Shown here in pieces: positions 3,382 through 28,951 of a stretch of DNA of 64,000 nt (its first letter is position 1; each line of letters starts with the position of its first letter). The position numbers and the translations under genes were made by a program. Source of the stretch: an uncultured Gaiellales bacterium (lineage in GTDB: Bacteria > Actinomycetota > Thermoleophilia > RBG-16-64-13); NCBI GenBank assembly GCA_964497095.1, contig CAZCCL010000001.1, positions 348 to 64,347 on the forward strand, written 5' to 3'. The notes beneath the pieces are model-generated. The model was not told the origin of the DNA, searched no databases, and saw only the letters and a list, made by a program, of their open reading frames with translations.

Positions 3382-3390
3382 ACGGCAGCA

Positions 3391-6571: not shown

Positions 6572-6677
6572 GACCGGCGTCGGGCCCGGGGCCGTGGAGC
6601 CCGGTCGAGGGGCCGTCTCACGGGCGACGGAAACCCGCTCTCAGCGGATTTTGTTCACCACCAGCCGCCGTCTCGGC

Positions 6678-6706
6678 TTGAGGGGGCCGGAACCTTCCGG
6701 TAGAAT
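6678..6706 (+). promoter_or_regulatory. Putative sigma-70-type promoter for dnaE: TTGAGG-17 nt-TAGAAT, spacer contains palindrome CCGGAAccTTCCGG
   Basis: Hexamers with 17-nt spacing about 50 nt upstream of the dnaE RBS (AAGGAG at 6743). Confidence 0.3.
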
Positions 6707-6758
6707 CGAGCGATAGAGGGGCGTCCGCCCTGGGGTGTTTCCAAGGAGATAGGTCGTT

Positions 6759-9700
6759 TTGTCGTCCGTTTTGCCGCCCGTCGCAGGCGAGACCATCGGG
6801 GGTAGTCCTATTCCCACTGCTGAAGAGACTGCGGGTGGAGCCGCCGCGGCGCCGGTCGATGCGGCTGCGGGCGGATCGGCTGCAGGGACGAGCCCCGGGC
6901 CGGCGGGCGAGACGGACCCCGCCCGCCCGGCCGCCGGCTTCTGCCACCTGCACGTGCACACTCACTACTCCGCTCTGGACGGGGCCTGCAAGGTGGAGGA
7001 CCTGGTGGCTCGGGCTGCTGAGCTCGGCATGCCCGCGCTGGCCATCACCGATCACGGGGTGCTTTCGGGTGCCATCAAGTTCTACGAAGAGTGTCTCAAG
7101 GCCGGCGTCAAGCCCATCATCGGACTCGAGACCTATGTGGTGGACGACCGCTTGCGCAAGGAGGGGATGAACGAGGAGCGCTGGCACCTCACCCTTCTCG
7201 CCCGGGACGACACGGGCTATCGCAACCTGCTCAAGCTGGGCAGCCTCGCCTTCCTCGAGGGCTACTACTACAAGCCGCGCCTCGACTACCAGGTCCTCAG
7301 GGAGCACGCAGAGGGCCTCATCTGCCTGACGGGATGTGCAAGCGGGCGGCTGTCGCGCGCCCTCCAGAACGGGCAGACAGCCGCCGCCGAGGCCGAAGTG
7401 CAGCGACTGGTCGGCATCTTCGGCGAGGGGAACGTGTATCTGGAGATGCAGGAGACCGGTATCCGCGAGTTGGCGGAAGTGAACCCGCGGATGGGGGAAC
7501 TGGCCGAGCGCACGGGCCTGAAGTTGGTGGCCACCAACGACGTGCACTACCTCCGCGAGGGCGACGCCGACGCGCATGACGTGCTGCTCTGCATCCAGAC
7601 GGGATCCCGGCTGTCGGAGGAGAACCGCCTGCGGTTCAACTCGCAGGAGTTCTACTTCAAGAGCCCAGAAGAGATGAGGGCCGTGTTCTCCGATCACCCG
7701 GAGGCCGTCTCGAACACCCTGGAGGTGGCGGACCGCTGCAACGTGCATATCGCGCTCGACGAGATGCTCATCCCCCGGTTCCCGGTACCGGAAGGGTACG
7801 ACGAGTCTTCGTATCTGCGGGAGCAATGCGAAAGAGGACTGGTCCGCCGCTACGGGGATGCGGTGACATCCGAGATAAGGGAACGGCTCGAAAGCGAACT
7901 GGAAGTGGTGGAGAAGATGGGCTTCCCGCCCTACTTCCTCATCGTGTGGGATTTCGTCACGTTCGCAAAGGAGGCCGGTATCCCCGTGGGACCCGGCCGC
8001 GGCTCGGCGGCGGGCTCTCTGGTGTCGTACCTGCTGGGTATCACCGACCTCGATCCCATCGCCTACGACCTGCTCTTCGAGCGATTCCTCAACCCCGACC
8101 GTATCAGCATGCCCGATATCGACATCGACTTCTCCGTGAACGGACGCGAGAGGGTGATCGAGTATGTGGCCGACAAATACGGACGCGACCGGGTGGCTCA
8201 GATCGCCACTTTCGGCACCATCAAGGCCCGGCAGGCCATTCGGGACGCTGCCCGGGTGATGGATGTGCCCTACGGGCAGGCCGACCGTATCGCCAAGCTG
8301 GTGCCCGAAGTGCTCAACATCACTTTGGATCAGTGCCTGCGAGACCCGAAGTGCGAGCTGCGCGCCGCCTACGACGGCGACGAGTTGGTCCGCGAGGTGG
8401 TGGACATGGCCCGGCCTCTGGAAGGGCTCATCCGCCAAGATTCCATCCATGCCGCCGGGGTGGTCATCTCCATGGGGCCCCTCACCGATCATCTTCCCCT
8501 CATGCAGAAGGGGGACGCCGAGGTGGTCACCCAGGTCTCCATGGGGGACGTGGAGAGGCTGGGCCTGCTCAAGATGGACTTCCTAGGACTGCGAAACTTG
8601 GACGTCATCGACAGCGCCGTCGGCATCATCCGAGACGGGGGTCACCCGGAATTCGACATCGAATCGATCCCCCTGGACGACGCCCGGACGTACCAGATGT
8701 TGGCCAAGGGGGACTCGGAAGGGGTGTTCCAGTTCGAATCCAGCGGGATGCGGGAAGCCTTGCGCGAGATCCAGCCTACGCGGCTGGACGATCTGATTGC
8801 GCTCGTCGCCCTGTATCGGCCTGGGCCGATGGAGTTCATCCACGACTACGCGCGCAACAAGCGCGATCCCGAGAGCATCAGGTACGAGGACGAGCGGTTG
8901 CAGTCCATCCTCAGCCCCACCTACGGAGTGGCCATCTATCAGGAACAGCTGATGGAGATCTCCAAGCGGATCGGTGGGTTCAGCCCCGCGGAAGCCGACG
9001 ACCTGCGCAAAGCCATCGGCAAGAAGATCCGGGCAAAGATGGACCGGCTCGAGCCCAAATTCCGCGCCGGAGCGGCCGCTTCAGGAACGTCACCGCGGGT
9101 GATCGATCACCTGTGGTCGCTGATGGAGAAGGCGGGGGATTACTCGTTCAACAAGTCACACGCCGCCTGCTACGCCCTCATCTCCTATCGCACCGCCTAC
9201 CTCAAAGCCAAGTTCCCCGTGCAGTACATGGCCGCGCTCATCTCCAGCGTCATGGACACCAAGGACAAGGTCCCCTTCTACGTGACGGTGGCCAACGAGA
9301 TGGGCATCGAGGTGTTGCCTCCGGACATCAACGAGTCGGTCCTCGACTTCCGCGGCGTGGAGGGGCGCATCCGCTTCGGTCTGAACGCGGTCAAGAACGT
9401 GGGGGAGACGGCCATCCGCGTCATCCTGGACGCCCGGCGAAGCGGCGGACCATTCCTGGATCTGTTCGACTTCTGCGAACGCGTCGACCTGGGCGTGGTG
9501 AACGGGCGGGCTATCGAGAGCCTTATCAAGTCGGGGGCCATGGATTCCGTCGGCCCTTCGCGGCGGGGGATGCTCCTCGTCATGCAGCAGGCGATGGCCC
9601 ACGGCAAGAAGGTCAGGGCCGACGCCGATAGAGGCCAGGGATCCATCTTCGATCTCATGCCGGAGCCGGAAGCGCCGGCGGCCGATAGCCGGGGTGCCGC

Positions 9701-10478
9701 CGCCGAGTCCGACTCTCCGGCAGGCGCCCGCGTCGGGACGAACGGCTCGCCGGGGAACGGGTCTCGGGGCAATGGACGGCCGCCGGTGGAGATACCCCCC
9801 GATGACTTCAGCCGGGAAGAGCTTCTGGCATTGGAGAAGGAGACGTTGGGACTGTATGTGAGCTCGCACCCCCTGAAGGATCTCCGGCAGCACATCAAGA
9901 GAGAGGCAGGCCATTTGATCTCCCAACTAGGGGAACTGCCGGACGGCACGGTCACTACCATCGTGGGCATGGTGACGGCGGTGAAGCGGATCACCACGAA
10001 GAAATCGGGCGAGCTCATGGCCTTTGTCACCGTCGAGGGTATGGAAGGCTCCGTCGAGATCATCTGTTTCCCGGCGATCTACCAGGAGAACAAGGAGATC
10101 CTGATACAGGACAAGGTGGTGAAGATCAAGGGCCGGGTGGATCACAAGGACGAGGCCGAGACCAAGTTCATCCCCATGGCCATCGAAACGTTCTCGCCCC
10201 GGACGGGACTGGAGCCTCTGGCTCTTTCCGTCGATGGCGACAGCTTCCCCAGCACGGTCATAGAGGACCTCAAGCGTATCCTGGCCCGCTTCCCCGGGCA
10301 GTGTTCCGTCGACATGTACGTGCAGGTGGGGGCGGATGCGCGCCGCCTGCGTTTCGGGAACGGCTACCGGGTCGACCCCCAAGCCAGTCTTTTCGCGGAA
10401 CTGAAGGAATTGCTGGGGGAAAGCTGTGTGCTGCACGGGTCGGGATCGTCGACCCTCGGCAACGGTTCCGCGAGGTAG
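6759..10478 (+). CDS. dnaE: DNA polymerase III alpha subunit (PHP + polymerase + OB domains)
   Basis: FCHLHVHTHYSALDGA… PHP N-terminus with a long polymerase core. TTG start with AAGGAG RBS. The first about 55 aa are a low-complexity Ala/Gly/Pro extension, so the true start could be later. Confidence 0.9.
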   Translation: MSSVLPPVAGETIGGSPIPTAEETAGGAAAAPVDAAAGGSAAGTSPGPAGETDPARPAAGFCHLHVHTHYSALDGACKVEDLVARAAELGMPALAITDHGVLSGAIKFYEECLKAGVKPIIGLETYVVDDRLRKEGMNEERWHLTLLARDDTGYRNLLKLGSLAFLEGYYYKPRLDYQVLREHAEGLICLTGCASGRLSRALQNGQTAAAEAEVQRLVGIFGEGNVYLEMQETGIRELAEVNPRMGELAERTGLKLVATNDVHYLREGDADAHDVLLCIQTGSRLSEENRLRFNSQEFYFKSPEEMRAVFSDHPEAVSNTLEVADRCNVHIALDEMLIPRFPVPEGYDESSYLREQCERGLVRRYGDAVTSEIRERLESELEVVEKMGFPPYFLIVWDFVTFAKEAGIPVGPGRGSAAGSLVSYLLGITDLDPIAYDLLFERFLNPDRISMPDIDIDFSVNGRERVIEYVADKYGRDRVAQIATFGTIKARQAIRDAARVMDVPYGQADRIAKLVPEVLNITLDQCLRDPKCELRAAYDGDELVREVVDMARPLEGLIRQDSIHAAGVVISMGPLTDHLPLMQKGDAEVVTQVSMGDVERLGLLKMDFLGLRNLDVIDSAVGIIRDGGHPEFDIESIPLDDARTYQMLAKGDSEGVFQFESSGMREALREIQPTRLDDLIALVALYRPGPMEFIHDYARNKRDPESIRYEDERLQSILSPTYGVAIYQEQLMEISKRIGGFSPAEADDLRKAIGKKIRAKMDRLEPKFRAGAAASGTSPRVIDHLWSLMEKAGDYSFNKSHAACYALISYRTAYLKAKFPVQYMAALISSVMDTKDKVPFYVTVANEMGIEVLPPDINESVLDFRGVEGRIRFGLNAVKNVGETAIRVILDARRSGGPFLDLFDFCERVDLGVVNGRAIESLIKSGAMDSVGPSRRGMLLVMQQAMAHGKKVRADADRGQGSIFDLMPEPEAPAADSRGAAAESDSPAGARVGTNGSPGNGSRGNGRPPVEIPPDDFSREELLALEKETLGLYVSSHPLKDLRQHIKREAGHLISQLGELPDGTVTTIVGMVTAVKRITTKKSGELMAFVTVEGMEGSVEIICFPAIYQENKEILIQDKVVKIKGRVDHKDEAETKFIPMAIETFSPRTGLEPLALSVDGDSFPSTVIEDLKRILARFPGQCSVDMYVQVGADARRLRFGNGYRVDPQASLFAELKELLGESCVLHGSGSSTLGNGSAR

Positions 10479-14627: not shown

Positions 14628-15944
14628 ATGAGGATCAAAGAACTGAGCACCGCCTCCGTGTCCGATGAGGTAACCGCTTTGCGGGTGCCGGAGTCGGCGA
14701 ACCGGGAGGTAGCGGCGACTGTGGCCGCCCTGATCGCCGACGTGCGCCTGAGGGGCGATGCTGCCGTGGTGGAAGCCAGCGTTCGGTTCGACTGGGAAGG
14801 GGCGAGCGCCTCGGAATTGGTGGTGGCGGTCGATGACCTGGAGGCAGCCTACCGCCGGGTCGATCCCCGAGTGATGGCTGCGCTTGAAACCGCCCGCGAC
14901 AACTGCACCTTCTTCCACGAGCACGAGCTGAGGCCGGACTGGGAGGACGAGGGCGCCCAGGGGCAGAGGCTGGGTATGCGCTACCGTCCGGTGGAGCGCA
15001 CCGGTCTGTACGTGCCGGGCGGGCTGGGCTCCTATGCCTCCACGGTCATCATGAACGCCGTCCCTGCGCGCGTGGCCGGAGTGAAGGAACTCGTCATCTG
15101 CACCCCTCCTGGCCGGGACGGAGCCGTCGACCTCGCTGTGCTGGCCGCGGCCCGGCTCATGGGCATAGAGCGGGTGTTCCGAGCGGGCGGCGCCCAGGCT
15201 ATCGCGGCCCTGGCCTACGGGACCGAGACGATCCCGCGGGTGGATGTGATCTGCGGGCCCGGCAACGCCTACGTGATGGAGGCCAAGCGCCAGGTCTACG
15301 GGGCCGTAGGCATCGACAGTCTGGCCGGCCCGAGCGAGGTACTGGTGGTGGCCGATGGAACGGCCCGCCCTGATTGGATCGCCGCAGACATGCTCGCCCA
15401 GGAGGAGCACGGGAGCGGGGCCCAGGCGGTCCTGATAGCCGAGTCGGAACGTCTCTGTCTGGAGGTGGGCGACGCCCTCGAGCGCCTGCGTCCCGCCACC
15501 CTGGCCGGCGGCCCCGACCGCATCCGGACCGGGCGCGAAGACGACGGCCTCCGGGCTTTCTATCCCGCAGCGGACGAGGAGTTTCTGGATCTCGCGGCCC
15601 GGTTCGTCAACTCCTACGCCCCCGAGCATCTCGAGATCCAACTGGCCGAGCCCGGGGCCTTTCTTCCCGGGGTGAGGTCGGCGGGCGCCATATTCGCCGG
15701 CCATTTGACGGCGACGGCCTTCGGCGACTACGTGGCCGGCAGCAACCATGTGCTCCCCACCGGAGGGACGGCCCGTTTCGCCTCTCCGCTCTCGGTGGAT
15801 ACGTTCATGCGCAGATCGTCGCTCGTGGAGATGACGCCCGAGGCGGTGGCGGCCCTTGCTCCTCACCTCGCCGAATTGGCGGACAGTGAGGGTTTCTCGT
15901 TTCACCGCGTGTCCGCCGAGTTGCGCGCCGCCGACACGCACTGA
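14628..15944 (+). CDS. hisD: Histidinol dehydrogenase
   Basis: Full-length HisD pattern (…GGAQAIAALAYGTETIPRVDVICGPGNAYV…HLE…). Confidence 0.9.
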   Translation: MRIKELSTASVSDEVTALRVPESANREVAATVAALIADVRLRGDAAVVEASVRFDWEGASASELVVAVDDLEAAYRRVDPRVMAALETARDNCTFFHEHELRPDWEDEGAQGQRLGMRYRPVERTGLYVPGGLGSYASTVIMNAVPARVAGVKELVICTPPGRDGAVDLAVLAAARLMGIERVFRAGGAQAIAALAYGTETIPRVDVICGPGNAYVMEAKRQVYGAVGIDSLAGPSEVLVVADGTARPDWIAADMLAQEEHGSGAQAVLIAESERLCLEVGDALERLRPATLAGGPDRIRTGREDDGLRAFYPAADEEFLDLAARFVNSYAPEHLEIQLAEPGAFLPGVRSAGAIFAGHLTATAFGDYVAGSNHVLPTGGTARFASPLSVDTFMRRSSLVEMTPEAVAALAPHLAELADSEGFSFHRVSAELRAADTH

Positions 15945-16067
15945 TTCCGGCGGGACGACCGGGAGCGGCCCTGTGCTATCCTCCTCGGGTCGCTTCGGAA
16001 GCCGGCTCCGTGCCCGAGGAAAGACTGGGCCCAAGGATTGGCCGAAGGGCTCGTCCCGATCAGATTC

Positions 16068-16703
16068 ATGGAGGAGACAGTGCAGCCCGATAGCTCCACG
16101 CGCCCTCTCGATACCGCTCCCCGGGGGGCCACCATAGAGCGGAAGACCCGGGAGACCACGGTCCGGGTCAAACTCGACCTCGAAGGTTCGGGTCAGAGCA
16201 AGGTCAAGACCGGTCTGGGCTTCTTCGATCACATGCTGGAACTCGTGGCCGGCCACGGTCTGTTCGACATCACCGTGGAAGCGAGCGGTGATCTGCAGAC
16301 GGGCGGACACCACACGGTCGAGGATGTCGGCATCTGTCTCGGGTTGGCTCTGGCCGAAGCCGTGGGCGACAAGAAAGGCATCTACCGCTACGGGAACATG
16401 GTCGTGCCCATGGACGAGGCCTTGGTCCTGGTCGCCTTGGATCTGAGCGGGCGACCCTACTTCGCTTACGAGGGAGGCCCCGTGGGGGAGAGCATCGCCG
16501 GGTTCGACAGCAGCTTGGTGGCGGAGTTCTTCCGGGCATTGGCCAACAACGCCCGCATGACCATGCACGCACGCGTGCTCTCCGGGGGAGACGCCCACCA
16601 CACCATCGAAGCCGTCTTCAAAGCCTTCGCCAAGGCCCTGAGGCAGGCGGTCTCTCTCGACCCGCGGGCCACCGGCGTCCCCTCTACCAAAGGGGTCTTG
16701 TGA
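16068..16703 (+). CDS. hisB: Imidazoleglycerol-phosphate dehydratase
   Basis: …RKTRETTVRVKLDLEGSG…GFFDHMLELVAGHGLFDITVEASGDLQTGGHHTVEDVG… An alternative TTG start at 16038 is possible. Confidence 0.85.
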   Translation: MEETVQPDSSTRPLDTAPRGATIERKTRETTVRVKLDLEGSGQSKVKTGLGFFDHMLELVAGHGLFDITVEASGDLQTGGHHTVEDVGICLGLALAEAVGDKKGIYRYGNMVVPMDEALVLVALDLSGRPYFAYEGGPVGESIAGFDSSLVAEFFRALANNARMTMHARVLSGGDAHHTIEAVFKAFAKALRQAVSLDPRATGVPSTKGVL

Positions 16704-17353
16704 GCGGTCTCGGACCCGCGGGTGGAGCCCGGTCCCTCTACATCGTCGACTACGGTTCCGGGAACCTTCGCTCGGTACAAAAAGCGTTCGAGCACGTGGG
16801 GGTGACGGCGGTCGTAGGGCACGATCCCCGGGGGATGGCCGGCGCCGCCGGTGTGGTTCTGCCCGGAGTGGGGGCTTTCGGTGCGGCGATGGAACAACTG
16901 GAGGAAAAGGGCCTGGTGGAGCCGCTTCTTGAGCGGATCGAGGCCGGGGTGCCGTTCCTAGGGGTCTGCCTGGGTCTGCAGCTTCTCTTCGAGAGCAGCG
17001 AGGAGGACCCCGGGGTCTCGGGGCTGGGGTTGGTGCGCGGGGACGTCCGGGCGCTGCCGCCCACGGTCAAGGTGCCCCACATCGGTTGGAACCAAGTGCA
17101 GGTGTGCACGTGCTCCGATCTGTTCGAGGGGATCCCCGACGGGTCGGCCTTCTACTTCGTACACGGCTACGCCGTGGTGCCCCGCTCGCCTTCGGACGTG
17201 CTGGGCATAACCGACTACGACGGGGTGGCCTTCACCTCGGCGGTGGAGGTGGACAATGTGGCGGCTGTGCAGTTCCACCCGGAGAAATCGAGCAGCCTTG
17301 GCCTTCGCTTCTATCGCAACTTCGCCAAGCGCGCCGGGCTGGTAGACGGATGA
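16700..17353 (+). CDS. hisH: Imidazole glycerol phosphate synthase, glutamine amidotransferase subunit
   Basis: …YIVDYGSGNLRSV…GVGAFG… class I GATase. GTG overlaps the hisB stop (GTGA). Confidence 0.85.
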   Translation: MSGLGPAGGARSLYIVDYGSGNLRSVQKAFEHVGVTAVVGHDPRGMAGAAGVVLPGVGAFGAAMEQLEEKGLVEPLLERIEAGVPFLGVCLGLQLLFESSEEDPGVSGLGLVRGDVRALPPTVKVPHIGWNQVQVCTCSDLFEGIPDGSAFYFVHGYAVVPRSPSDVLGITDYDGVAFTSAVEVDNVAAVQFHPEKSSSLGLRFYRNFAKRAGLVDG

Positions 17354-17381
17354 TGCCGCGGCCGATGCCGACCACGGACTG

Positions 17382-18155
17382 ATGCGACTCATCCCTGCCA
17401 TCGACATCCGGGGAGGGCGCTGCGTGCGCCTGCGCAGGGGCGACTTCGCCGACGAGACCGTGTTCGGGGACGATCCCGTGGCTATGGCCAAGCACTGGGT
17501 GAGCGAAGGAGCCCGCTACCTGCACGTGGTCGATCTCGACGGGGCCCGCGAAGGGGCACTGCGCAATTTCGACCTAGTGCGAGCGATCGCCGAGGCGGTG
17601 CCGGTGCCCGTGCAGACCGGGGGAGGCATCCGCACCGAAGCGGCCCTGGAGTCGATCGCCGGCAGCCCGGTGGCCAAGGCGGTCATAGGGACGAGCGCAG
17701 TGGAGGACGAGGCCTTTTTAGAACGCGCGCTTGCCGTCCTGGGGGCCGGGCGGGTGGTGGTGGCCCTCGACGCCGAGCAGGGGTTCGTCAAGACCAAAGG
17801 CTGGCAGGAGAGAAGCGAGATATCGGCGCTGGATCTTGCCCGCAGGCTGCGAGAGAAGGGCGTGCGCGAGATCCTGTACACGGACATCAGCCGGGATGGG
17901 ATGATGCAGAGCGTGAACCTGGAGGGCGTCCGGGAAATGGCCTTGGGCAGCGGGTTGGAGGTCATAGCCTCGGGCGGGGTCAGCAGCCTCGACGATCTGC
18001 GGGCTCTGGTGGCGCTGGAGCCTGTGGGCGTGACGGCGGTCATCATCGGTCGCGCCCTCTACGAGCAGCGGTTCACAGTGGCGGAAGCCCTGGCGGTCCT
18101 CGACCATTCGCCGGACGGCCGGTCCGGTGGCGACGAGTCCGGGAGGGGGCGCTGA
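17382..18155 (+). CDS. hisA: ProFAR isomerase (phosphoribosylformimino-5-aminoimidazole carboxamide ribotide isomerase)
   Basis: [22 protein letters not shown]… HisA TIM barrel. Confidence 0.9.
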
Positions 18156-18949
18156 TGCTGCTCAAGCGGATCATTCCCTGCCTGGACGTGGACAAAGGCC
18201 GAGTCGTGAAGGGCACCAACTTCGTCGACATCCGCGATGCCGGCGACCCGGTGGAGTTGGCGTCGCGGTACGACCGAGAAGGGGCCGACGAGGTGGTCTT
18301 CCTCGATATCACCGCTTCGCACGAGAAGCGCGACACCATCGTGGAACTGGCTCGGCACTGCGCCGAAGAGCTGTTCATACCGTTCACCATCGGGGGCGGC
18401 ATCCGCGGCGAGGAGGACGTGCGCGAACTCCTGGGGGCCGGTGCCGACAAGGTGTCGCTGAACTCGGCGGCCATCCGGGACCCATCTCTCATCACCACGT
18501 GTGCCCGCCGCTTCGGCTCTCAGTGCGTGGTCATCGCCATCGACGCGAAGCGGGTAGAGGCGGCCGAGGGGCGGGCGACGCCCGATCCGGCCTCGCCGCT
18601 ACGGTGGGAGGCGTACCTCAACGGCGGGCGCGTGCCTACCGGGCTGGACGCGGTGGAGTGGGCCGTCCGGGCCGTCGGAATGGGGGCTGGGGAGATCCTG
18701 CTCACCTCGATGGACCGGGATGGGACCAAGGACGGGTACGATCTGGAGCTGACCCGGGCCGTGGCGGAGGCCGTCAACGTGCCCGTGATCGCCAGCGGGG
18801 GAGCGGGGACGCTCGACCATCTGGTGGAAGTGATCCAGGAGGGCAAGGCCGATGCGGTCTTGGCCGCGTCGATATTCCACTACGGGGAGTTCAGCATCCA
18901 TCAGGCCAAGGAACACATGGCGGCTCGGGGTATCCCGGTCCGCGTGTAG
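18155..18949 (+). CDS. hisF: Imidazole glycerol phosphate synthase cyclase subunit
   Basis: [23 protein letters not shown]… ATG overlaps the hisA stop (TGATG). Confidence 0.9.
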
Positions 18950-19001
18950 CCGGAGCGCTGCCGGTCGGCTCCAAGCCTCTTGTAGACCGATGCTTCATAT
19001 T

Positions 19002-19016
19002 TTGCTAGAATAGCAA
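19002..19016 (+). promoter_or_regulatory. Extended -10 promoter element TGcTAGAAT embedded in palindrome TTGCTA-GAA-TAGCAA, 10 nt before the peptidase ATG (leaderless-type)
   Basis: AT-rich island in a GC-rich genome. The TGn-TAGAAT extended -10 sits in a perfect 6-3-6 inverted repeat. Confidence 0.35.
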
Positions 19017-19021
19017 GTTGT

Positions 19022-20197
19022 ATGAGCCTTACCCGGACACCGGAAGCGCATACACGGCGGGCCGTGAAGTGGGTTATCCCGTCCCTCCTCGCCTTGATGG
19101 CGCTCGTCTTCTTGCCGGCATCGCCCTGGCTCTCTCCTGCACAGGGCTCTACGCTCACGCAGAAACAGGCCGAGCTCAGAGAGGCCAGTGCCCAGCTCAG
19201 CAAGTTGCAGGACTCCCTGGACGAGCTGGCTGTGAACTACAACAATGCCGAGGTCCGGCTCGCCGCTCTCGACGACGCCATCGCGGAGATCGAGAACGAC
19301 ATCGCCCGCTCGGAGAAAGACTACGGGATCGCGCAGGCCCAGCTGGCGAAGCGTCTGGTAGACCTCTACAAGAACGGAGGCTCGGCCACTCCGGGATATC
19401 TGGAGGTCCTTTTCTCGGACAGCGATATGGGCTCCATCCTCCAGCGGTTCTCTCTGCTCAGCAAAGTGGCGGACGACGACCAGGAGCTCTTCGACGAGAT
19501 CAAGGCCCACATCCAGAAGTCTGAAGAGCGTCAGGCGACCCTCGCAGAGAAGAAGCAGGCTCAGGCCGCCCAGGTGAAGGAACTGCAGGCGCTTCAGGCC
19601 GAGATGAACGACAAGATGAAAGCCTCGGCCAAGGAGTATAGACGGCTCAAGAATCAGGTGGCGGCGCTCAAAGAGGCGGAGCGCAAGGCGGCCGAAGCTG
19701 CGGCCAGGGCCAAGGCGGCAGCTGCCGCGGCCGCCGCGGCCAAGAAGAGGAGCAGCAGCGGCGGAGGCAGCAGCGGCGGGACGGTGCAGTCCGGTTCTTT
19801 CGTGTTCCCAGTGGACGGGCCGCATAGCTTCACGGACACGTGGGGCGCGCCTCGTTCAGGCGGCCGCACGCACAAGGGTACCGACATCATGGCGCCGCAC
19901 GGGACCCCGGTGGTGGCCTGTGTGAGCGGGACCATCCTCCGCACCAATCCCACCAACAGCGGATTGGGGGGGATCACCATCTGGCTGCGGGGCAAGAACG
20001 GCTCCAGCTACTACTACGCGCACCTGGACGGCATCGCTTCCGGCATCCACGGGGGAGTCTCGGTGGGGGCCGGACAGACGATCGGGTGGGTCGGCTGTAC
20101 GGGGAACGCCAACGGCTGCTATCACCTGCACTTCGAGATACACCCCGGAGGCGGGGCGGCCGTCAACCCGTACGCGACCTTGCGGGCGGCCGACTAA
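19022..20197 (+). CDS. M23 family metallo-endopeptidase (murein hydrolase activator type) with N-terminal signal/anchor and long coiled-coil
   Basis: Hydrophobic N-terminus, about 200 aa of coiled coil, C-terminal LytM/M23 domain (HKGTDIMAPHGTPVVA…YAHL…GCTGNANGCYHLHFEIH). Confidence 0.8.
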   Translation: MSLTRTPEAHTRRAVKWVIPSLLALMALVFLPASPWLSPAQGSTLTQKQAELREASAQLSKLQDSLDELAVNYNNAEVRLAALDDAIAEIENDIARSEKDYGIAQAQLAKRLVDLYKNGGSATPGYLEVLFSDSDMGSILQRFSLLSKVADDDQELFDEIKAHIQKSEERQATLAEKKQAQAAQVKELQALQAEMNDKMKASAKEYRRLKNQVAALKEAERKAAEAAARAKAAAAAAAAAKKRSSSGGGSSGGTVQSGSFVFPVDGPHSFTDTWGAPRSGGRTHKGTDIMAPHGTPVVACVSGTILRTNPTNSGLGGITIWLRGKNGSSYYYAHLDGIASGIHGGVSVGAGQTIGWVGCTGNANGCYHLHFEIHPGGGAAVNPYATLRAAD

Positions 20198-20206
20198 CAA
20201 CTCGTT

Positions 20207-23200
20207 CTAAGACATCGCTTCTGCTACGAGCGCCTGTCCGTTTGAGTCCGGGCCGGTTCCCGGCTTCAGGATCACCCCGCGCTGATGCTTCCCGTCTATC
20301 TTGATGACCAAGGGGTGGGAGAAGTGGAGGTGCCGGACGAAGGCAGCCTCCTGCATAGACGACTGTCCCTCCAGCCATTCCCAATCGAGTATGCCCTCTC
20401 CGCTTTCCGGGTTGACCGTGAAGTACCCGACTCGGAAGGAGGTCAGGTTCTGGAAGAAGTGGCTGCCCTGGGAAGGGGTGACCTTGATGTCCTTCAGGCC
20501 TGATTCCACGATCACCCGGGCCCCGGAGATCTGCTCCCAGGTGACGGGGATGCCCAGCCAAGGATCGGCCGAGCCCCAGCGGCCCAACCCGATCAGGATG
20601 TAGGGGACGCCCCGGGCGGCCAATCCCGCGTTGAAGCGGGCGACCTCCATCGCGATGTCCTGGCATTTGGCCCGGTCGAAACTGGCGTGGTCCACCATGA
20701 CCACGTCTCTGATGTGCACAAGCGTGCCGTTACCGAGCACGCTGCTCGACCACACCAGCACCTTTTCCGGCTCGACGTCTTCGGTATCCAACTCCTCCGA
20801 CTCTCGGGACAGAGCCATGGGACGCATCTGCAGGAAGCCGAAATCTGCCAGGGCGTCGGTCGATTCGGGCAACTGGACGGCGAACTCTATCTCTACTTCC
20901 GTGTTCATCCCCCAGCGTCCCAACTCCAGCAGTCGGTCCAGCGCCGCGGGGAGGGGGACGCTGCGCTGCTTGAGGATGGGGGCAAAACTGACCAAGCGGA
21001 TGCCCGGCCGGGAGATGCCGTCGTAAACCGCGTCGTTCTCGGGCGAATAGGTGGAGGCGACCGGGCCCAGGGTGCCGTCGGTCTCGGCGACGGCCAGGGG
21101 ATGAGGCTGTTCGGTGGTCTCGTCGCTATTGCTGTGGAGTTCCAGAGCAATGAACTGCCGCTGCGAGTTGGCGAGCATGTCCTCGGGCGTCGAGAAGTGC
21201 ATGAGGTGCTGGGGATGGCGGGGGCTGAACGAAAGAGCCCGGCCCCCATCGACGACCGTGCGGCCGAGACCCAGCGCCATCGTCACCACCCCGTCCGCCG
21301 CCTCCAGAGGGGGAGAGGGGTAGAAGTTGTGCGAGCGGGCCACTCCGGCGAGCGACGGGTAGAAACGGGTCCCGTGCTGCGCTCCCACTAGCCTCTGGAC
21401 GATCACCGCCATCTTCTCTTCCTCCAAGAGGTATGGCGTGACTTTGAAGTAATTCTTGGCGTAGGTCAGGAAGGTGGAAGCGAAGACGCGTTTGACCGCT
21501 CCGATCAACTGACGGAGCCGGACCGCGCGTTCCGGGTGGTTGTTGGGCAGCATGTAAGTCTTGTACACGCCGGCCAGCGGCTGATACTGGGAATCCTCGA
21601 GCAGGCTGGACGAGCGGACCGCCAGGGGGTAGGGGACCAGGTCGAGGAAAGCTGCCAGTTTGCTCTCGATCTCCTCGGGGAACGAAGCAGCGAGGAACCG
21701 CTCCTCGATCCCCCGGTCGTCCTCGGTCCCCATCGCGAACGGACGGAGGTCGTTCTCTTGGAGAAAGCGGTCGAAGACGTCCGTGCCCAGCACTACGCAG
21801 GGGGGGACGGTTATCTGCATCCCCGGGAATTGCTCTATCACGCCGAAATCACGGAGTAGGTGGCGCACGAACGCTAAGGCTCTGGCCTTGCCGCCGAGCG
21901 ACCCCTCGCCGATGCGGGCGAAACTGTTCTCGGGATCGAAGGTGGCCGGGTCGAAATCGGTCACCGATTCCCTGGTCCGCTCGCGTCGGTAGGTGTCTAT
22001 CTGCTCGATGAGATAGCGGCGGCGGCTCTCGATGGTGTCGTAGTCGGCGGAAGTACGCGGCCGCAGGTGATGCGCCAAGCGGAACTCCGTGCGTGCCTTC
22101 AACCAGCGCGAGAAGTCGTTTCGCTCCGCATGCAAGGCGATCGATTCGGCCGGCACGGTCCGCAGCATCTCCAGCAGGCTCTTCATATCCTTGGCCCGGC
22201 CCACCGGGGTGCCGTCGGGCAGGCTAAAGACGAAGTCACCGAAGAAGAAGTTGTCCACCACGAACCGGCGGAGGTCTTGCAGGAGCGTCGGGGAGCCCTT
22301 CAGGAGAAAATCGGCTCCCATCTTCCGGGCCAGGGCTTCGCTCTCGGGACGGCTCGACTGGAGGAGGATGGGGATGTCCTTCCAGGCCTCCTTCACTCTG
22401 CGGGCGAACTCCATCCCCGCCTCGGGGTTCAAAGTGCCCTCTTGGGGGAACTCGATGTCGGAGATGACTCCGAGCACCTCCTCTTGATACGCGGAGAAAT
22501 ACTCCCATGCCTCCTCGAACGTGCTGCAGAGGAGGATCTTGGGGCGCGCCCGCATGCGGAGGATCTTGTGGGCCGTGTTGACGCCTTCGGCTATGAGGCT
22601 CTGGGAGTGGTGGATGATCTCCGTGTAGATCATGGGCAGGAAGGCAGAGTAGTAGCGGATGTTGTCCTCGATGAGGAGGATGACCTGGATGCCCGCCACA
22701 CCCGTGTCGTAGGCGACGTTCAGCTTGTCCTCGATGTACTTGGTGATGGCCAGGAGGATGCGGGAGTCCCCTTCCCAGAGGAAGATGCGCTCGATCTCCG
22801 AGGTATCGCGGTGAGACATGAACTCGGCCAGCTCGCCGCCGTCGTAGGCCAGGATGACCACGGGGATGTCGAGACCTGCCGCTCGGGCCTCGCGCGCCAA
22901 CTCGACGGCGTTCATGTCGCCCAAGTTCACCGCGCTTACGATGAGATTGAAGCGGCTCTCCGCCTTGGCCAGGGCGATGGCCTCGGCGCCGCTGGACACG
23001 TGGGTGAGCCCGGTCGTGTGGTGAAGGTTCAGGTCGAGGAACTCGCCCAGTAGCAACTCGCTCAGTTGGCCGTCTTCCTGCAGGATGAAGGTGTCGTAGG
23101 TGCTCGACACCAGGATGATGTTCTCAACCCGGCGGGCCATGAGGTACTGGAAGTCGTATGCGTGACTCCAGTCCAGCTTCATCGGCTGGGTCGCTTCGGA

Positions 23201-23236
23201 CATGTCCCGCGCGCCGGCCTCGATGGCTACCGGCAC
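20207..23236 (-). CDS. Large PEP/pyruvate-binding (PPDK_N-type ATP-grasp) domain protein with two N-terminal receiver-like domains
   Basis: C-terminal half has a PPDK_N-like nucleotide-binding signature (IGEGSLGGKARALAFV…VVLGTDVFDRFL…). The N-terminal half contains two CheY-like segments (…ILLIEDNIRYYSAF…VISDIEFP…). No swivel His domain is recognised. Confidence 0.5.
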   Translation of the reverse strand: MPVAIEAGARDMSEATQPMKLDWSHAYDFQYLMARRVENIILVSSTYDTFILQEDGQLSELLLGEFLDLNLHHTTGLTHVSSGAEAIALAKAESRFNLIVSAVNLGDMNAVELAREARAAGLDIPVVILAYDGGELAEFMSHRDTSEIERIFLWEGDSRILLAITKYIEDKLNVAYDTGVAGIQVILLIEDNIRYYSAFLPMIYTEIIHHSQSLIAEGVNTAHKILRMRARPKILLCSTFEEAWEYFSAYQEEVLGVISDIEFPQEGTLNPEAGMEFARRVKEAWKDIPILLQSSRPESEALARKMGADFLLKGSPTLLQDLRRFVVDNFFFGDFVFSLPDGTPVGRAKDMKSLLEMLRTVPAESIALHAERNDFSRWLKARTEFRLAHHLRPRTSADYDTIESRRRYLIEQIDTYRRERTRESVTDFDPATFDPENSFARIGEGSLGGKARALAFVRHLLRDFGVIEQFPGMQITVPPCVVLGTDVFDRFLQENDLRPFAMGTEDDRGIEERFLAASFPEEIESKLAAFLDLVPYPLAVRSSSLLEDSQYQPLAGVYKTYMLPNNHPERAVRLRQLIGAVKRVFASTFLTYAKNYFKVTPYLLEEEKMAVIVQRLVGAQHGTRFYPSLAGVARSHNFYPSPPLEAADGVVTMALGLGRTVVDGGRALSFSPRHPQHLMHFSTPEDMLANSQRQFIALELHSNSDETTEQPHPLAVAETDGTLGPVASTYSPENDAVYDGISRPGIRLVSFAPILKQRSVPLPAALDRLLELGRWGMNTEVEIEFAVQLPESTDALADFGFLQMRPMALSRESEELDTEDVEPEKVLVWSSSVLGNGTLVHIRDVVMVDHASFDRAKCQDIAMEVARFNAGLAARGVPYILIGLGRWGSADPWLGIPVTWEQISGARVIVESGLKDIKVTPSQGSHFFQNLTSFRVGYFTVNPESGEGILDWEWLEGQSSMQEAAFVRHLHFSHPLVIKIDGKHQRGVILKPGTGPDSNGQALVAEAMS

Positions 23237-23266
23237 CTCCTACTTGAGGGGTCTCGGACCGCCCCG

Positions 23267-24733
<1,467 letters not shown>

Positions 24734-25162
24734 TCACCCGGCCGACACGAGCAAGAGGGCGATCATCCCCAGAACGAGAACCAGTTGCACGGTCATGCCG
24801 ACCAGGGGACCGGCCTTGCCGTGAGGGAATCCCTTCCAGTGACTGGGGAACCAGCGCCTGCGCTTCGCGCCGGGTAGAAGCGCGTCGAACACGTCGAGGT
24901 CGGGGGCGGCGGAGACGATGGCGGCGACCAGCGCCCGACCGGGCAGGTCGAGAAGAAGGAAGAGCGCCGGGACGGCGGCGACGGAAACGGTGACGTCCAA
25001 GAGCGCCCACAGGGTGCGCCGGCGGTCGCGTGTGTAGTCCCAGTGGGGCACGAGGTCCAGCAGGAGATGCAGGAAGAGGGCGCAAACGACCGTGAGGACG
25101 ATCCCCAGAGGAACCCGAGCGCCCAGCGCAAGACCGGTCAAGGCGTGTACGATGACCCACAT
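24734..25162 (-). CDS. Small polytopic membrane protein (DUF457/YdjM-like?)
   Basis: 142 aa with three or four hydrophobic helices. Weak resemblance to LexA-regulated membrane hydrolase-like proteins. Confidence 0.35.
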   Translation of the reverse strand: MWVIVHALTGLALGARVPLGIVLTVVCALFLHLLLDLVPHWDYTRDRRRTLWALLDVTVSVAAVPALFLLLDLPGRALVAAIVSAAPDLDVFDALLPGAKRRRWFPSHWKGFPHGKAGPLVGMTVQLVLVLGMIALLLVSAG

Positions 25163-25245
25163 GCGTGGGATTCTAATGCGTCGGGAAAGGGAAGACTAAC
25201 GCGTTGCCCGCTTGAGTACTGTGGTTGTCTGTGCGGGAGTCGAAG

Positions 25246-26463
25246 ATGGAGCTTGTACAGGTCGATCGGGGACGGATCGAAGGCCTGCGCGAAGAGAGAC
25301 GGCGCGAGTCGTCTCCGATCATCGTGCCCGGCTTCTACTCCCGCCTGGCCGAAGAAGCCGTGGCCCACCTGGTGCAGGAGACAGGGCGAGATGAGGGATC
25401 CCCTGAGGACGTCGGCTATGTGCTTGCGGTCGAGAGGCCCCACGGCGGTCACACACACATCACGCTGGTAGAACTGTATGTGACTGCGGCTTATGGGACG
25501 CGCCTCGAGGACTTGCTCGACCTGGTCCGGGAGCATCTGAAGCCCACCGCCTACCTGGTCCGCACCGACGACTGCCGGCTGAATGCCACCCTCCTTGCCA
25601 GGGGACACCAGGTGGAGGCGGCCGCCTTGGTCATGCTGGCGGAGGAGGCGGGTGGTCCTGTCGAGGACGAGGCGGCGCCAACCCCGGCGGATGCCACGCT
25701 GGCCGCGTTCGGTCTTGAGCATTTGGTCGGGCTTCGAGAATTGCTGGAGGGCGCCGCCGGCGGGCAGAGAGAGGACGGTGGAGCGCACCATCACGAAGGC
25801 GGCGATCAGGCTTCGATGGTCGATCAACTGGATGCCTTGGCCCGGCAGGGACACAACTGGGTGCTGCTGGTGGGCGGGCGTCCTGTGGCCGTGGTCGCCC
25901 GGCTGGACGGAGGAGACGGGAGGCACGAGCTGCTCGACTTGGTCGTCGCCCGCGCCGACGAAGACGTCTTGGCCTGGGCCGTCGAGCGCTGCACGGACGA
26001 GCTGCGGAGGGAAGGCCGCCGGCCTGCCGCGGTCATCGATGCGGCTGAGCCCGCCCGGAGGCGTACCTTTCGAAAGGCCGGATACTACAGCGCCGCCGCC
26101 TACATGGTCTTCTACGATCCCGAGGCCGGCAGACCCAGTGTGGGCACGATGGCGGTGCAGGAACTGCGCGAACTCATGGACGGGCGGGAGCACTTCCGGC
26201 TAATCGATGTGCTCGGGGAGAAGCACTGGCGGGCGGGTCATCTCCCCGGATCCGAGTGGATGGACTTCAGGGGTCTGGCCCGGGAGGCTCGGCGCCGGTT
26301 CGAGGTCGACGAGCCCGTCATCCTCTACTGCGACGGCTTCACCTGAGAGGCGAGCGCGATCGCAGCTGATAAGCTGCGACAGTTGGGTTTCACGAACGTG
26401 CGCGATTTCGCCGGCGGCGTGGGCGAATGGGTGGCGGCCGGCTTCCCCTTGGAGGAGTCATGA
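25246..26463 (+). CDS. GNAT-like N-terminal region fused to C-terminal rhodanese domain; in-frame TGA (26344-26346) in the rhodanese active-site loop (…VILYCDGFT-TGA-EASAIAADKLRQLGFTNVRDFAGGVGEWVAAGFPLEES). Candidate selenocysteine; alternatively a nonsense pseudogene
   Basis: The reading frame continues for 38 codons after the TGA with canonical rhodanese C-terminal residues, then ends at a proper stop at 26461. Hairpin 13 nt after the TGA. ATG at 25246 with GGGAG RBS. Confidence 0.5.
26360..26379 (+). other. SECIS-like hairpin (7-bp stem TCGCAGC / GCTGCGA, loop TGATAA) starting 13 nt after the in-frame TGA of the rhodanese ORF
   Basis: Perfect inverted repeat read from the sequence. Same 13-nt offset as the selD hairpin. 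Confidence 0.4.
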
Positions 26464-27446
26464 AGGACTCGTTGGTGGACGGCGCGGCCGTGGAGCGGCT
26501 CCTGCTGTTCTCGGGCGCTCTGCGCGCCGGTCTGATCGACGCACTGGCGAACGGAGAAGCTTCGACGGTCGAGGAGGTTTCTCGAAGAGCGGAGACCGAT
26601 CCTCGGGCTACTCAGATCGTGCTCGAGGCTCTGGCGGCGGAAGGCGTGGTCGAGCGCCTGCAGGTGGAGCCGGCGACCACAGCGGAAGAAAGCGTCCGCT
26701 ACCGCCTCTCGGAGGTGGGGAGGGAGCATCTTCTCGGCGGCGGTGCGCAGGTGGAGCGCTTCGGTCTGATGCACCAGGTGAACAAGCTGCGGGGCTGGCT
26801 CGAGCTGCCGGAGGTCATCCGCACAGGACGGCCCGTGCCTCGTGATCCGGCCAAACGCGACGTCCGCACCATGGTGGGCGCGATGGGAGAGCGCGATCCG
26901 GCCCTGCTCGATGAGATCGTGGAGAGGTGTCTGGCCTATTCCGGTCCCATCCACACCATGTTGGACGTCGGGGGCGCCGTCGGTCACGTGGCCCGGCACT
27001 TCGCGCGCTGTGGCGTGCGTGCGACCTTGTACGACCGAGAGAATGTGATCCCGTTGGCTCGCGAGTTTCTGGGAGACGAGGGCGGTGACATCGCGCTGGT
27101 AGCAGGAGACTTCACCGAGTCTCTTCCCGCCGGGCCCTTCGACCTCGTCTACTTGGGCAATGTCCTTCACATCTACAGTCCGGCCACCAACGCGCGCGTG
27201 ACCCGGTCGGTCTTCCCGATCCTTCCTCCGGGGGGGACGATCGCCGTCCAGGACCACATGTGGGGACGGAGCCCCCGGGCGGCACGGTTCGCGGTGAACA
27301 TGCTACAGGCGACCGAGGAAGGTGGGGTCCGGACGGAGGCGCAGTACCGTGAGTGGCTGACGACGGCCGGGTTCGTGAAGATCGAGGTCTTGGACCTAGA
27401 GGCGGCCGCGGTGCAGCTCATCCTGGGCATGCGGCCGCGGATCTGA
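26460..27446 (+). CDS. SAM-dependent O-methyltransferase (class I MTase with N-terminal winged-helix dimerisation domain)
   Basis: N-terminal wHTH (…LIDALANGEASTVEEVSRRAE…) and Rossmann MTase motifs (MLDVGGAVGHVARHF…). ATG overlaps the rhodanese-ORF stop (ATGA) with GGAGGAG RBS. Confidence 0.75.
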   Translation: MKDSLVDGAAVERLLLFSGALRAGLIDALANGEASTVEEVSRRAETDPRATQIVLEALAAEGVVERLQVEPATTAEESVRYRLSEVGREHLLGGGAQVERFGLMHQVNKLRGWLELPEVIRTGRPVPRDPAKRDVRTMVGAMGERDPALLDEIVERCLAYSGPIHTMLDVGGAVGHVARHFARCGVRATLYDRENVIPLAREFLGDEGGDIALVAGDFTESLPAGPFDLVYLGNVLHIYSPATNARVTRSVFPILPPGGTIAVQDHMWGRSPRAARFAVNMLQATEEGGVRTEAQYREWLTTAGFVKIEVLDLEAAAVQLILGMRPRI

Positions 27447-27745: not shown

Positions 27746-28951
27746 ATGGAGCGATATCTACTAAGGGACGACATATGGTGGGCGGGTGCCATCGATTGGG
27801 ACGTCCGTGATTTCCACGGCTACGAGACCCCGCGGGGGACCACATACAACGCTTACCTGATCCTGGATGAGAAGGTGGCCCTGGTCGATGGCTGCCGGGA
27901 GGGCTTCGGCCCGGAGGTGTTGGCCCGGATCCGCGGCTGCTGTGGCATGCGCCCGGTAGACTACCTGGTCGTCAACCACGTGGAGCCCGATCATTCGGGG
28001 GCGATCCCCTGGCTGGTGGAGCGACTGAGACCTGAGCGGATCTTCTGCTCGAAGCGGGCGAGGGACGTGCTGGGCCTTTACTACGGGGCGGAGACGGTGG
28101 ACGGCTGGAATATCCAGACGGTCGCCACCGGGGACGAGGTCTCCCTCGGGCGCAACACGTTGCAGTTCATCGAAGCGCCCATGCTGCATTGGCCGGACAG
28201 TATGTTCACCTACGTCAGAGAGGCCAAGACCCTCCTGCCCAACGACGGTTTCGGCCAGCACCTGGCCACGTCCAAGCGTTTCGCCGACGAAGTCGACATG
28301 AGCTTGGTCATGGAGGAGGCCAGCAAGTACTACGCCAACATCCTCATGCCGTTCGGGGGACAGATCCAGAAGATGCTGGCCAAGATAGGCGAGCTGGGCC
28401 TGGAGATCGAGACGATCGGCCCCAGCCACGGGGTGATATGGCGCCGGCCCGAGGACGTGTCCCGCATCGTGGAGTCGTACGCTGCGTGGAGCGACTTCCA
28501 GGCGCCGGAGCGGGTGTCGCTGATCTACGACACCATGTGGCACGCCACCGAGCAGATGACCATGGCCATCGCGGACGGCGTGGCTCAGCAGGGAGTGGAC
28601 TGCGTGGTCGCCAGACTCAGCAGCAACCCCCGGTCCGAGATGGCACGCCTGGTTCTCGAGTCCAGGGCCTTCCTGGTGGGGTCGCCCACCCTGAACAACA
28701 ATATGTTCCCGACCGTCGGGGAATTCCTCACCTACATCAAGGGTCTCCGGCCGCGTAGGCGTGTGTCCGGCGCCTACGGCTCCTGCGGGTGGGCAGGAGG
28801 GGCGGTGAAGCAGCTCGACGCGGAGCTCACGGCCCTGGGTCTCGACATGGTGGAGCCCATCGAAGTCAAGTACAGGCCGAGCAAGGCCGAGTTGGAGACG
28901 TGCGTGGAACTGGGCCGGCAGGTGGCCCGCAAAGTCAGGACCACCGGATAG
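27746..28951 (+). CDS. Flavodiiron protein (FprA/rubredoxin:oxygen oxidoreductase type; metallo-beta-lactamase plus flavodoxin domains)
   Basis: …LVNHVEPDHSGAIPWL… di-iron site region. C-terminal flavodoxin-like domain (…FLVGSPTLNNNMFPTV…). 401 aa. Confidence 0.85.
   Translation: MERYLLRDDIWWAGAIDWDVRDFHGYETPRGTTYNAYLILDEKVALVDGCREGFGPEVLARIRGCCGMRPVDYLVVNHVEPDHSGAIPWLVERLRPERIFCSKRARDVLGLYYGAETVDGWNIQTVATGDEVSLGRNTLQFIEAPMLHWPDSMFTYVREAKTLLPNDGFGQHLATSKRFADEVDMSLVMEEASKYYANILMPFGGQIQKMLAKIGELGLEIETIGPSHGVIWRRPEDVSRIVESYAAWSDFQAPERVSLIYDTMWHATEQMTMAIADGVAQQGVDCVVARLSSNPRSEMARLVLESRAFLVGSPTLNNNMFPTVGEFLTYIKGLRPRRRVSGAYGSCGWAGGAVKQLDAELTALGLDMVEPIEVKYRPSKAELETCVELGRQVARKVRTTG

Follow-up and report, generated by a model that had tools for sequence, protein, structure and literature searches.

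A tandem-receiver protein with a dikinase-type ATP-grasp module encoded beside glutamate dehydrogenase genes in many bacterial phyla

PEP synthase (PEPS), PPDK and rifampin phosphotransferase (RPH) are dikinases that combine an ATP-grasp domain with a swivel domain, in which the canonical catalytic loop reads T/SxxGGxxxH (PMC12167813). Here we analysed a stretch of 64,000 nucleotides (hereafter the window) from an uncultured Gaiellales bacterium (contig CAZCCL010000001.1), in which a gene that we call X lies directly downstream of gdhA, the gene for an NADP-specific glutamate dehydrogenase (GDH). Its product carries the ATP-grasp domain of these dikinases beneath two receiver folds. Known modules are found here in a new combination that includes a probable cryptic swivel domain, and their strongly conserved metabolic partner is likewise new. 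X is probably an undescribed regulator of glutamate dehydrogenase. Post-translational control of bacterial NADP-GDH is poorly understood compared with that exerted by the glutamine synthetase/PII system, and X, co-inherited with gdhA across many phyla, offers a concrete and testable candidate for such control.

X differs from each of the closest described systems. Compared with RPH, HpeHI, CreHI and PpsAB, it has no substrate-binding (RIF-binding-like) domain, and its swivel domain is undetectable by sequence and lacks the T/SxxGGxxxH motif. It has in addition two N-terminal receivers and an OrfY-like domain, and it is linked to gdhA instead of resistance or catabolic genes. Relative to PEPS and PPDK, it lacks the PEP/pyruvate-binding TIM barrel, and the similarity is confined to about 150 residues of the ATP-grasp domain; its reaction would be expected to resemble the first half-reaction of PEPS, PPDK and RPH. 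Proteins of the PleD type likewise have two consecutive receiver folds, one of them with an acceptor Asp, N-terminal to an enzymatic output, but X has them in the opposite order, the pseudo-receiver preceding the canonical one, and the output is of the ATP-grasp/His type rather than GGDEF. In EI-Ntr (PtsP), the phosphoryl donor is PEP bound in a TIM barrel and the sensor is a GAF domain, whereas X has an ATP-grasp domain and receivers; an HPr/NPr-like partner was not seen near X. The genomic logic of a modifying enzyme adjoining its target is that of PpsR/PDRP by ppsA (ppsR adjoins ppsA in E. coli) and of DraT/DraG by nifH, an analogy only, as these proteins share neither sequence nor fold kinship with X.

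Domain architecture of X

The open reading frame (ORF) of X contains, in order, a pseudo-receiver, a canonical receiver, an OrfY/DUF5752-like domain, a PPDK_N ATP-grasp domain and a C-terminal domain:

20207-23236, minus strand: ORF of X, 1009 codons, GTG start at 23236, stop codon inside the coordinates
22694-23128, minus strand: REC1, pseudo-receiver, residues 37-181, (beta-alpha)5 fold
22250-22690, minus strand: REC2, canonical receiver, residues 183-329, codon of the acceptor D260 at 22457-22459
21968-22243, minus strand: small beta-hairpin and helical domain, DUF5752/OrfY-like, residues 332-423, with invariant W378
20771-21901, minus strand: PPDK_N ATP-grasp nucleotide-binding domain, residues 446-822
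20264-20767, minus strand: C-terminal divergent swivel-like domain (probable assignment), residues 824-991, codon of H926 at 20459-20461

Residue numbers follow the ORF from its GTG codon; subtracting 11 gives the 998-aa numbering used in the alignments. An original prediction, made from the DNA letters, had placed a 1009-aa ORF at 20207-23236, and this ORF indeed exists on the minus strand from GTG; the plus-strand frame of the same interval is interrupted by stops throughout and was rejected. The GTG at 23236 overlaps a GGAGG motif. The next in-frame start, ATG 23203, yields a 998-aa protein that is 100% identical to a public-collection protein (P0001), and it agrees with the N-termini of the aligned homologues. 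Since the database call and the homologue alignment coincide on ATG 23203, it is the more likely start.

A full-length AlphaFold model of X (71 sequences; pLDDT 89, pTM 0.78) consists of two (beta-alpha)5 units at residues 28-170 and 174-318 (998-aa numbering), a beta-hairpin with helices, the ATP-grasp domain and a compact C-terminal alpha/beta domain. Foldseek searches of the PDB with the N-terminus returned the tandem REC-REC structures of PleD (9g85/1w25) and 3mf4/3luf at E-values of 1e-7 to 1e-5, along with many single REC structures, and a family profile also matched REC structures in the PDB (e.g. 3hv2, E 3e-6). The Response_reg domain (PF00072) scores 28.9 bits in X itself, under the Pfam cut-off of 30.2, and is present at E<0.01 in 40 of 48 diverse family members (best E 1.4e-12). 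The model, the structure search, the profile and the family-wide Pfam matches agree that the N-terminal half is receiver-like, and the two CheY-like segments originally proposed for it are thereby borne out.

The two receivers differ in their acceptor sites, as analysed over 141 aligned family sequences. The acceptor Asp of REC1 is replaced by Ala102 in X (M, A or T across the family), and REC1 is therefore a pseudo-receiver; the Lys position is occupied by Trp154, and the beta1 loop reads S-S-x-Y-D with conserved Y47-D48. REC2 has the full catalytic set of E190/D191, D260, S294 and K313, conserved in 136 (E), 124 (D), 128 (D), 131 (S) and 133 (K) sequences, respectively (88-96%). A conserved Asp is thus found in REC2 (D260) but not in REC1 (Ala102). 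The fold of REC2 also includes an inserted helical segment after alpha1 and a hairpin following beta3, and this receiver is predicted to accept a phosphoryl group. Thirteen of the 141 sequences (about 9%) are devoid of the REC2 acceptor Asp (residue 249 in 998-aa numbering), having N, S, G, E, Q or C or, in one case, a gap at this position. These members often lose D180 (998-aa numbering) as well and look like phosphorylation-independent sublineages. All of them keep the ATP-grasp residues and the His, and the receiver would therefore be a regulatory add-on outside the core chemistry. For the small domain that follows REC2, DUF5752 (PF19027) scores 20.4 bits in X against a cut-off of 23 and matches at E<0.01 in 24 of the 48 members; in P0176, a family member outside those 48, it reaches 25.5 bits, over the cut-off. 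The family profile matches OrfY of T. tenax (4cso) at E 6e-3.

The C-terminal half contains the PEP/pyruvate-binding nucleotide domain that had been foreseen there. PPDK_N (PF01326) matches X over model positions 3-324 of 328 with 119 bits (E 3e-34, cut-off 27) and was found in all 48 diverse members, and Foldseek aligned this part with RPH (5hv2, E 2e-10), HpeI and PPDK in the PDB. The conserved residues in X comprise GGK450, R541-S-S, E547/D548, E782/E784 and Q803/R805, a set presumably corresponding to the ATP and Mg contacts of PPDK and RPH structures. Across the 141 sequences (998-aa numbering), K439, R530, S531, S532 and Q792 are invariant, and conservation reaches 90% or more at E536, D537, E771, E773 and R794. 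The whole set, together with the His motif of the C-terminal domain, is kept with few exceptions down to 31% identity.

Residues 824-991 have no match to a sequence model, either in Pfam or with the family profile against the PDB. This domain nevertheless holds the most conserved motifs of X, namely GxGRWG[ST]xDxxLGIPVxW, E911 and PSxG[ST]H926FFxN, as well as LGNG. The His (residue 915 in 998-aa numbering) is kept in 138 of the 141 members, and in the AlphaFold model it sits at the N-terminus of a helix (915-922, 998-aa numbering), a place that we take to be shared by the catalytic His of PPDK. Structural matches of the domain include RPH, Enzyme I and EI-Ntr, with figures of 6.2, 5.8 and 5.7, respectively. 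Most of the others are to aconitase domain 4, the apical domains of GroEL/thermosome and of the transferrin receptor, putative cyclases and DRTGG, which presumably share the 'swivelling beta/beta/alpha' fold of SCOP. Furthermore, the domain directly follows the ATP-grasp domain, at the same place as the swivel domain in E. coli PpsA, and an alignment by eye of X with PpsA pairs LGNG with IGAG, [ST]xDPW with TDPDW, and VIVE...GSH with AIVTNRGGRTCH421. In place of T/SxxGGxxxH, the loop of X reads E900-(x10)-PSxG[ST]H (998-aa numbering) and is longer. The PEP-utilising mobile domain (PF00391) has no match in X or in the 48 members, and a profile of the C-terminal domain gave only chance matches in the PDB (longin domains). 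An hhalign comparison with the swivel domain of E. coli PpsA yielded a probability of 0.4%, with only the LGNG/IGAG strand aligned, and Foldseek returned nothing significant for the isolated domain. We consider it probable, short of proof, that the C-terminal domain is a divergent swivel domain of the phospho-His type. The original statement that X has no phospho-His swivel domain thus holds at the level of sequence matches, but probably not at the level of structure.

Beyond this domain, no PEP-utilizers_C TIM barrel, RIF-binding-domain or CBM match was found in X with Pfam and NCBIfam, and the modelled chain ends about 20 residues past the swivel-like domain. PEP-utilizers, PEP-utilizers_C, HisKA and HATPase_c are present in 0 of the 48 members. 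Because it has neither an acceptor-substrate domain nor a histidine-kinase domain, X corresponds to the ATP-to-His 'half' of a dikinase, placed beneath a tandem receiver. Orthology with PEP synthase, PPDK, PigC or RedH was rejected, as the NCBIfam scores are 30-50 bits where the cut-offs lie at 600-1350. Given these scores and the missing acceptor domain, X falls outside the PEPS, PPDK and RPH enzyme families. The name 'histidine kinase', borne by some homologues in the databases, was likewise rejected, as neither HisKA/DHp nor HATPase_c occurs in X or the 48 members. A role in anti-phage defence was dismissed after PADLOC returned 0 families at E<=1.

Pairing with glutamate dehydrogenase genes

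In the window, X and gdhA are neighbours on one strand:

23267-24628, minus strand: gdhA, NADP-specific glutamate dehydrogenase, 453 aa from ATG 24628 (probable start), ORF open to 24703
23237-23266, minus strand: spacer between gdhA and X, 30 nt to the GTG and 63 nt to the ATG of X, with GGAGG within

The product of gdhA matches NF006929 (746 bits) and both ELFV dehydrogenase Pfam domains, and its true start is probably ATG 24628. No terminator-like hairpin was found between the two genes in the window. The originally reported 30-nt gap on the same strand is exact to the GTG of X, but the likelier ATG start lengthens it to 63 nt.

We then compared 82 loci, comprising 80 species and two contigs of close homologues, with flanks of 6 kb. 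Genes for gdhA were located by tblastn with the GdhA of the window and counted at 62% identity or more. The arrangements were as follows:

39 loci: gdhA immediately upstream of X, same strand
10 loci: gdhA 0.6-3 kb upstream of X, with variable genes inserted
5 loci: gdhA immediately downstream of X, convergent
4 loci: gdhA downstream of X, same strand
1 locus: gdhA divergent from X

Accordingly, gdhA lies within 6 kb of X at 59 of the 82 loci (72%), and a GDH-family ORF lies within this distance at 73 (89%) when paralogues of 30% identity are counted. The genes inserted between gdhA and X vary in some Acidobacteria, and all-against-all clustering of the flanking ORFs identified GDH as the only conserved neighbour of X. 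For a single-copy gene in a few-megabase genome, we estimate that such proximity would arise by chance in well under 1% of genomes. With adjacency so far over this estimate, and spread over more than 10 phyla, the association of X with GDH is functional, although not universal. The synteny expected by the original prediction therefore extends well beyond the genome in which it was noticed.

In the FCB group, the pair has been multiplied. Three loci (L035, L040, L058) are arrayed as GDH-B - X1 - GDH-A - X2 - GDH, the last being a 415-aa paralogue of 31% identity, and four (L008, L027, L036, L052) as GDH-A - X - GDH (31%). Across genomes, the copies of X behind GDH-B share 66-74% identity with one another but only 57-64% with those behind GDH-A, the copy in the same genome included. 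The groups of X track the groups of GDH paralogues; the gdh-X pair has therefore been copied, and retained, as one unit. The presence of distant paralogues suggests that the action of X extends to other members of the GDH family besides GdhA. Clusters of the FCB group have up to three GDH types, two of them GdhA-like at 64-75% identity, and the L008 cluster (3055-10421) also carries a 470-aa GDH type. Tandem X-X arrangements with no GdhA-type gene in the flanks occur in L066 (6001-12496) and L082 (6001-11954). In L066, a 31%-identity GDH paralogue lies between the copies, and the second X is 28% identical over the ATP-grasp and C-terminal regions only.

The GDH-A enzymes linked to X form a tight subfamily, with a median pairwise identity of 75.7% across phyla and a minimum of 67.6%. 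Their median identity to E. coli GdhA (L084, 872-2215), which has no X gene beside it, is 57.6%. Thirty-five positions that are at least 95% conserved in X-linked GdhA differ from E. coli GdhA, a comparison with a single outgroup that is not interpretable as such; W199, R288, D336, E402 and D449 (window GdhA numbering) are examples, and may be candidates for interface or modification sites. As a weaker second tie to glutamate and NADPH metabolism, a GltD-like gene (glutamate synthase small-subunit type) is found near X at 8 loci, including L026 and L053, and an NfnA/PyrK-like partner of it at 7.

A candidate mechanism and its alternatives

We tentatively read X as a response-regulator-type ATP-to-His phosphotransferase that controls the co-encoded GDH. 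Its output module would be the catalytic core of a dikinase of the PEP-synthase/PPDK/rifampin-phosphotransferase type. Initially, the ATP-grasp domain would bind ATP and phosphorylate His926 on the C-terminal swivel domain. The phosphoryl group would then be handed on in trans, because X has no acceptor-substrate domain. The likeliest target would be the co-encoded GDH or something that binds it, and GDH activity would be switched post-translationally by X, with both the formation of phospho-His and the direction and target of regulation being presumed. Input would arrive via REC2, where phosphorylation of Asp260 by an unlinked histidine kinase would gate the activity of X, and for REC1 a role in dimerisation or as an adaptor is probable, by analogy with PleD. 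The original prediction had suggested that X could be an ATP-dependent (phospho)transferase under signal control, acting on glutamate/nitrogen metabolism or on some other substrate; the architecture and the synteny with GDH support its core, the link to glutamate or nitrogen, and the function itself is what we infer. If this reading is true, response regulators gain a dikinase core as an output domain, and the PEPS/PPDK/RPH superfamily gains a member that is free of an acceptor domain and possibly directed at a protein.

Several points weigh against this reading. The characterised dikinases with ATP-grasp and swivel domains phosphorylate small molecules (PMC12167813), and none of them (PEPS, PPDK, RPH, GWD) is known to target a protein. 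Around X, no recurrent histidine kinase gene was found across the 82 neighbourhoods that could be a cognate kinase. At 23 of these loci gdhA is missing from the flanks, including that of a 76%-identical homologue that lies among toxin-antitoxin and transporter genes, and no fusion of X with GDH occurs among the best 150 representatives.

A bolder version makes X the first protein-directed ATP-grasp/swivel-His dikinase, a 'GDH kinase' under two-component control that covalently switches GDH isoenzymes; we regard this as doubtful. Were it true, X of the FCB group, placed between GDH paralogues (two of GdhA type and the distant one of about 415 aa), could coordinate them, should their roles differ, and a widespread and unnoticed post-translational layer would exist in the control of nitrogen assimilation. 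In a variant more unusual still, the module would feed the receiver Asp of its own protein and so stand in, non-canonically, for a histidine kinase.

The main rival explanation is that X is a small-molecule dikinase, in which the phospho-His would pass its phosphoryl group to a metabolite of the GDH network (2-oxoglutarate, glutamate or a nucleotide cofactor) bound at the REC/OrfY-like region or at a dimer interface, with the receivers tuning the reaction. PEPS, PPDK, RPH, HpeHI and the glucan water dikinases act on small molecules or glycans (see also PMC12167813), the nearest structural matches of X are RPH and HpeI, and co-location with a metabolic enzyme would suit a pathway partner. We nevertheless find it unlikely, considering that the family has no acceptor domain (PEP-utilizers_C in none of the 48 members, no RIF-binding-like segment, a chain that ends after the swivel), that GDH is the sole conserved neighbour with no other recurrent pathway enzyme, and that two receiver domains are typical of signalling proteins.

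As a further alternative, X might regulate GDH, or something else, by binding only; the ATP-grasp domain would then sense nucleotides instead of transferring phosphate, and His926 would serve structure or ligand binding. In its favour, signalling proteins often include pseudo-enzymes, X departs from the canonical swivel motif, and neither Foldseek nor hhalign supports a true swivel domain. However, even at 31% identity the GGK, RSS, ED, ExE, QxR and His motifs show little or no variation, as would be expected of an active enzyme, which makes this alternative quite improbable.

A third possibility is a self-contained ATP-to-His-to-Asp relay, in which the PPDK-type module, replacing a histidine kinase, would phosphorylate the protein's own Asp260 and the phosphorylated REC pair would act on GDH by binding, so that X would read the ATP/AMP/Pi status directly. 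The complete acceptor pocket of REC2, the phospho-His-type domain in the same polypeptide, the lack of a conserved histidine kinase gene nearby at the 82 loci and the name 'histidine kinase' given to homologues by some database sources would all fit. On the other hand, 13 of the 141 sequences have lost this Asp (residue 249 in 998-aa numbering, often with D180) while their ATP-grasp residues and His are intact; the Asp therefore cannot be an obligatory end-point, which lowers the odds of an obligatory relay. Receivers N-terminal to an enzymatic domain are moreover the standard layout of response regulators, and phosphotransfer to a receiver Asp from the His of a swivel domain has, to our knowledge, no precedent. 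We consider such a relay very unlikely.

Finally, that the adjacency to gdhA is meaningless, by chance or hitch-hiking, and that X serves an unrelated pathway is hardly credible: the 23 loci without gdhA, that of the 76%-identical homologue among them, stand against a frequency of 72% (89% with paralogues) compared with an estimated <1%, more than 10 phyla, four relative orientations and duplication of the pair as a unit.

Family distribution and surrounding genes

A phmmer search with X against 1.84 billion representatives (clusters at 50% identity) gave 4931 matches at E<1e-3 and 1312 at E<1e-30. Most of the best 150 homologues are full-length (about 1000 aa), with identities that fall to about 31-32%. 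When one genome for each GTDB species was scanned by pattern, relatives of X were confirmed in at least 594 species genomes. Among the matches listed, they span more than 10 phyla, including Thermoleophilia/Actinomycetota, Acidobacteriota, Bacteroidota, Ignavibacteria, Calditrichia, Zixibacteria and Eisenbacteria, and further Gemmatimonadota, Planctomycetota, Myxococcota, Bdellovibrionota, Fibrobacterota and a Syntrophomonadaceae genome. The architecture, at first considered uncommon, is therefore widespread by both counts. The description of X as poorly characterised was apt: the family is uncharacterised, and the literature searched contained no account of its architecture or of its link to GDH. 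Homologues bear generic database names ('PEP/pyruvate-binding domain-containing protein', 'CheY-like chemotaxis protein', 'histidine kinase'), and thousands of such entries could be re-annotated coherently. Long variants occur as well. In P0176 (1557 aa) and P0234 (1524 aa), the N-terminus is extended by about 550-590 aa that Pfam does not match, P0260 (1523 aa) has two PPDK_N modules and no receiver match, and P0212 (1145 aa) is a further example.

A search of the whole 64-kb window with Rfam at gathering thresholds detected no RNA family (no tRNA, riboswitch or small RNA), and a regulatory RNA near gdhA was rejected on this basis. Two ORFs, 25138-26193 (minus strand) and 26207-26845 (plus strand), lack Pfam matches and are possibly not real genes. 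Directly upstream of gdhA on the same strand, 24734-25162 (minus) encodes a 142-aa hydrophobic, His/Asp-rich small membrane protein without a Pfam match; it has a counterpart in the close relative L001 (1776-2201) and is not kept across the wider set of loci. Downstream, X is faced by a convergent gene for an M23 peptidase that contains a PcsB-like coiled coil (19022-20197, plus strand). This gene is preceded by a histidine biosynthesis operon (14628-19008, plus strand) in the order hisD, hisB, hisH, hisA, hisF, as inferred from the gene table of L001 (86% identical), with a Pfam His_biosynth match at 18155-18949. The arrangement of his operon, M23 peptidase gene and X is also present in L001. 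Beyond the region upstream of gdhA, the plus strand encodes an O-methyltransferase (26427-27446; Methyltransf_2 and a dimerisation domain) and a flavodiiron-type protein (27746-28951) with an ODP metallo-beta-lactamase fold and a flavodoxin domain.

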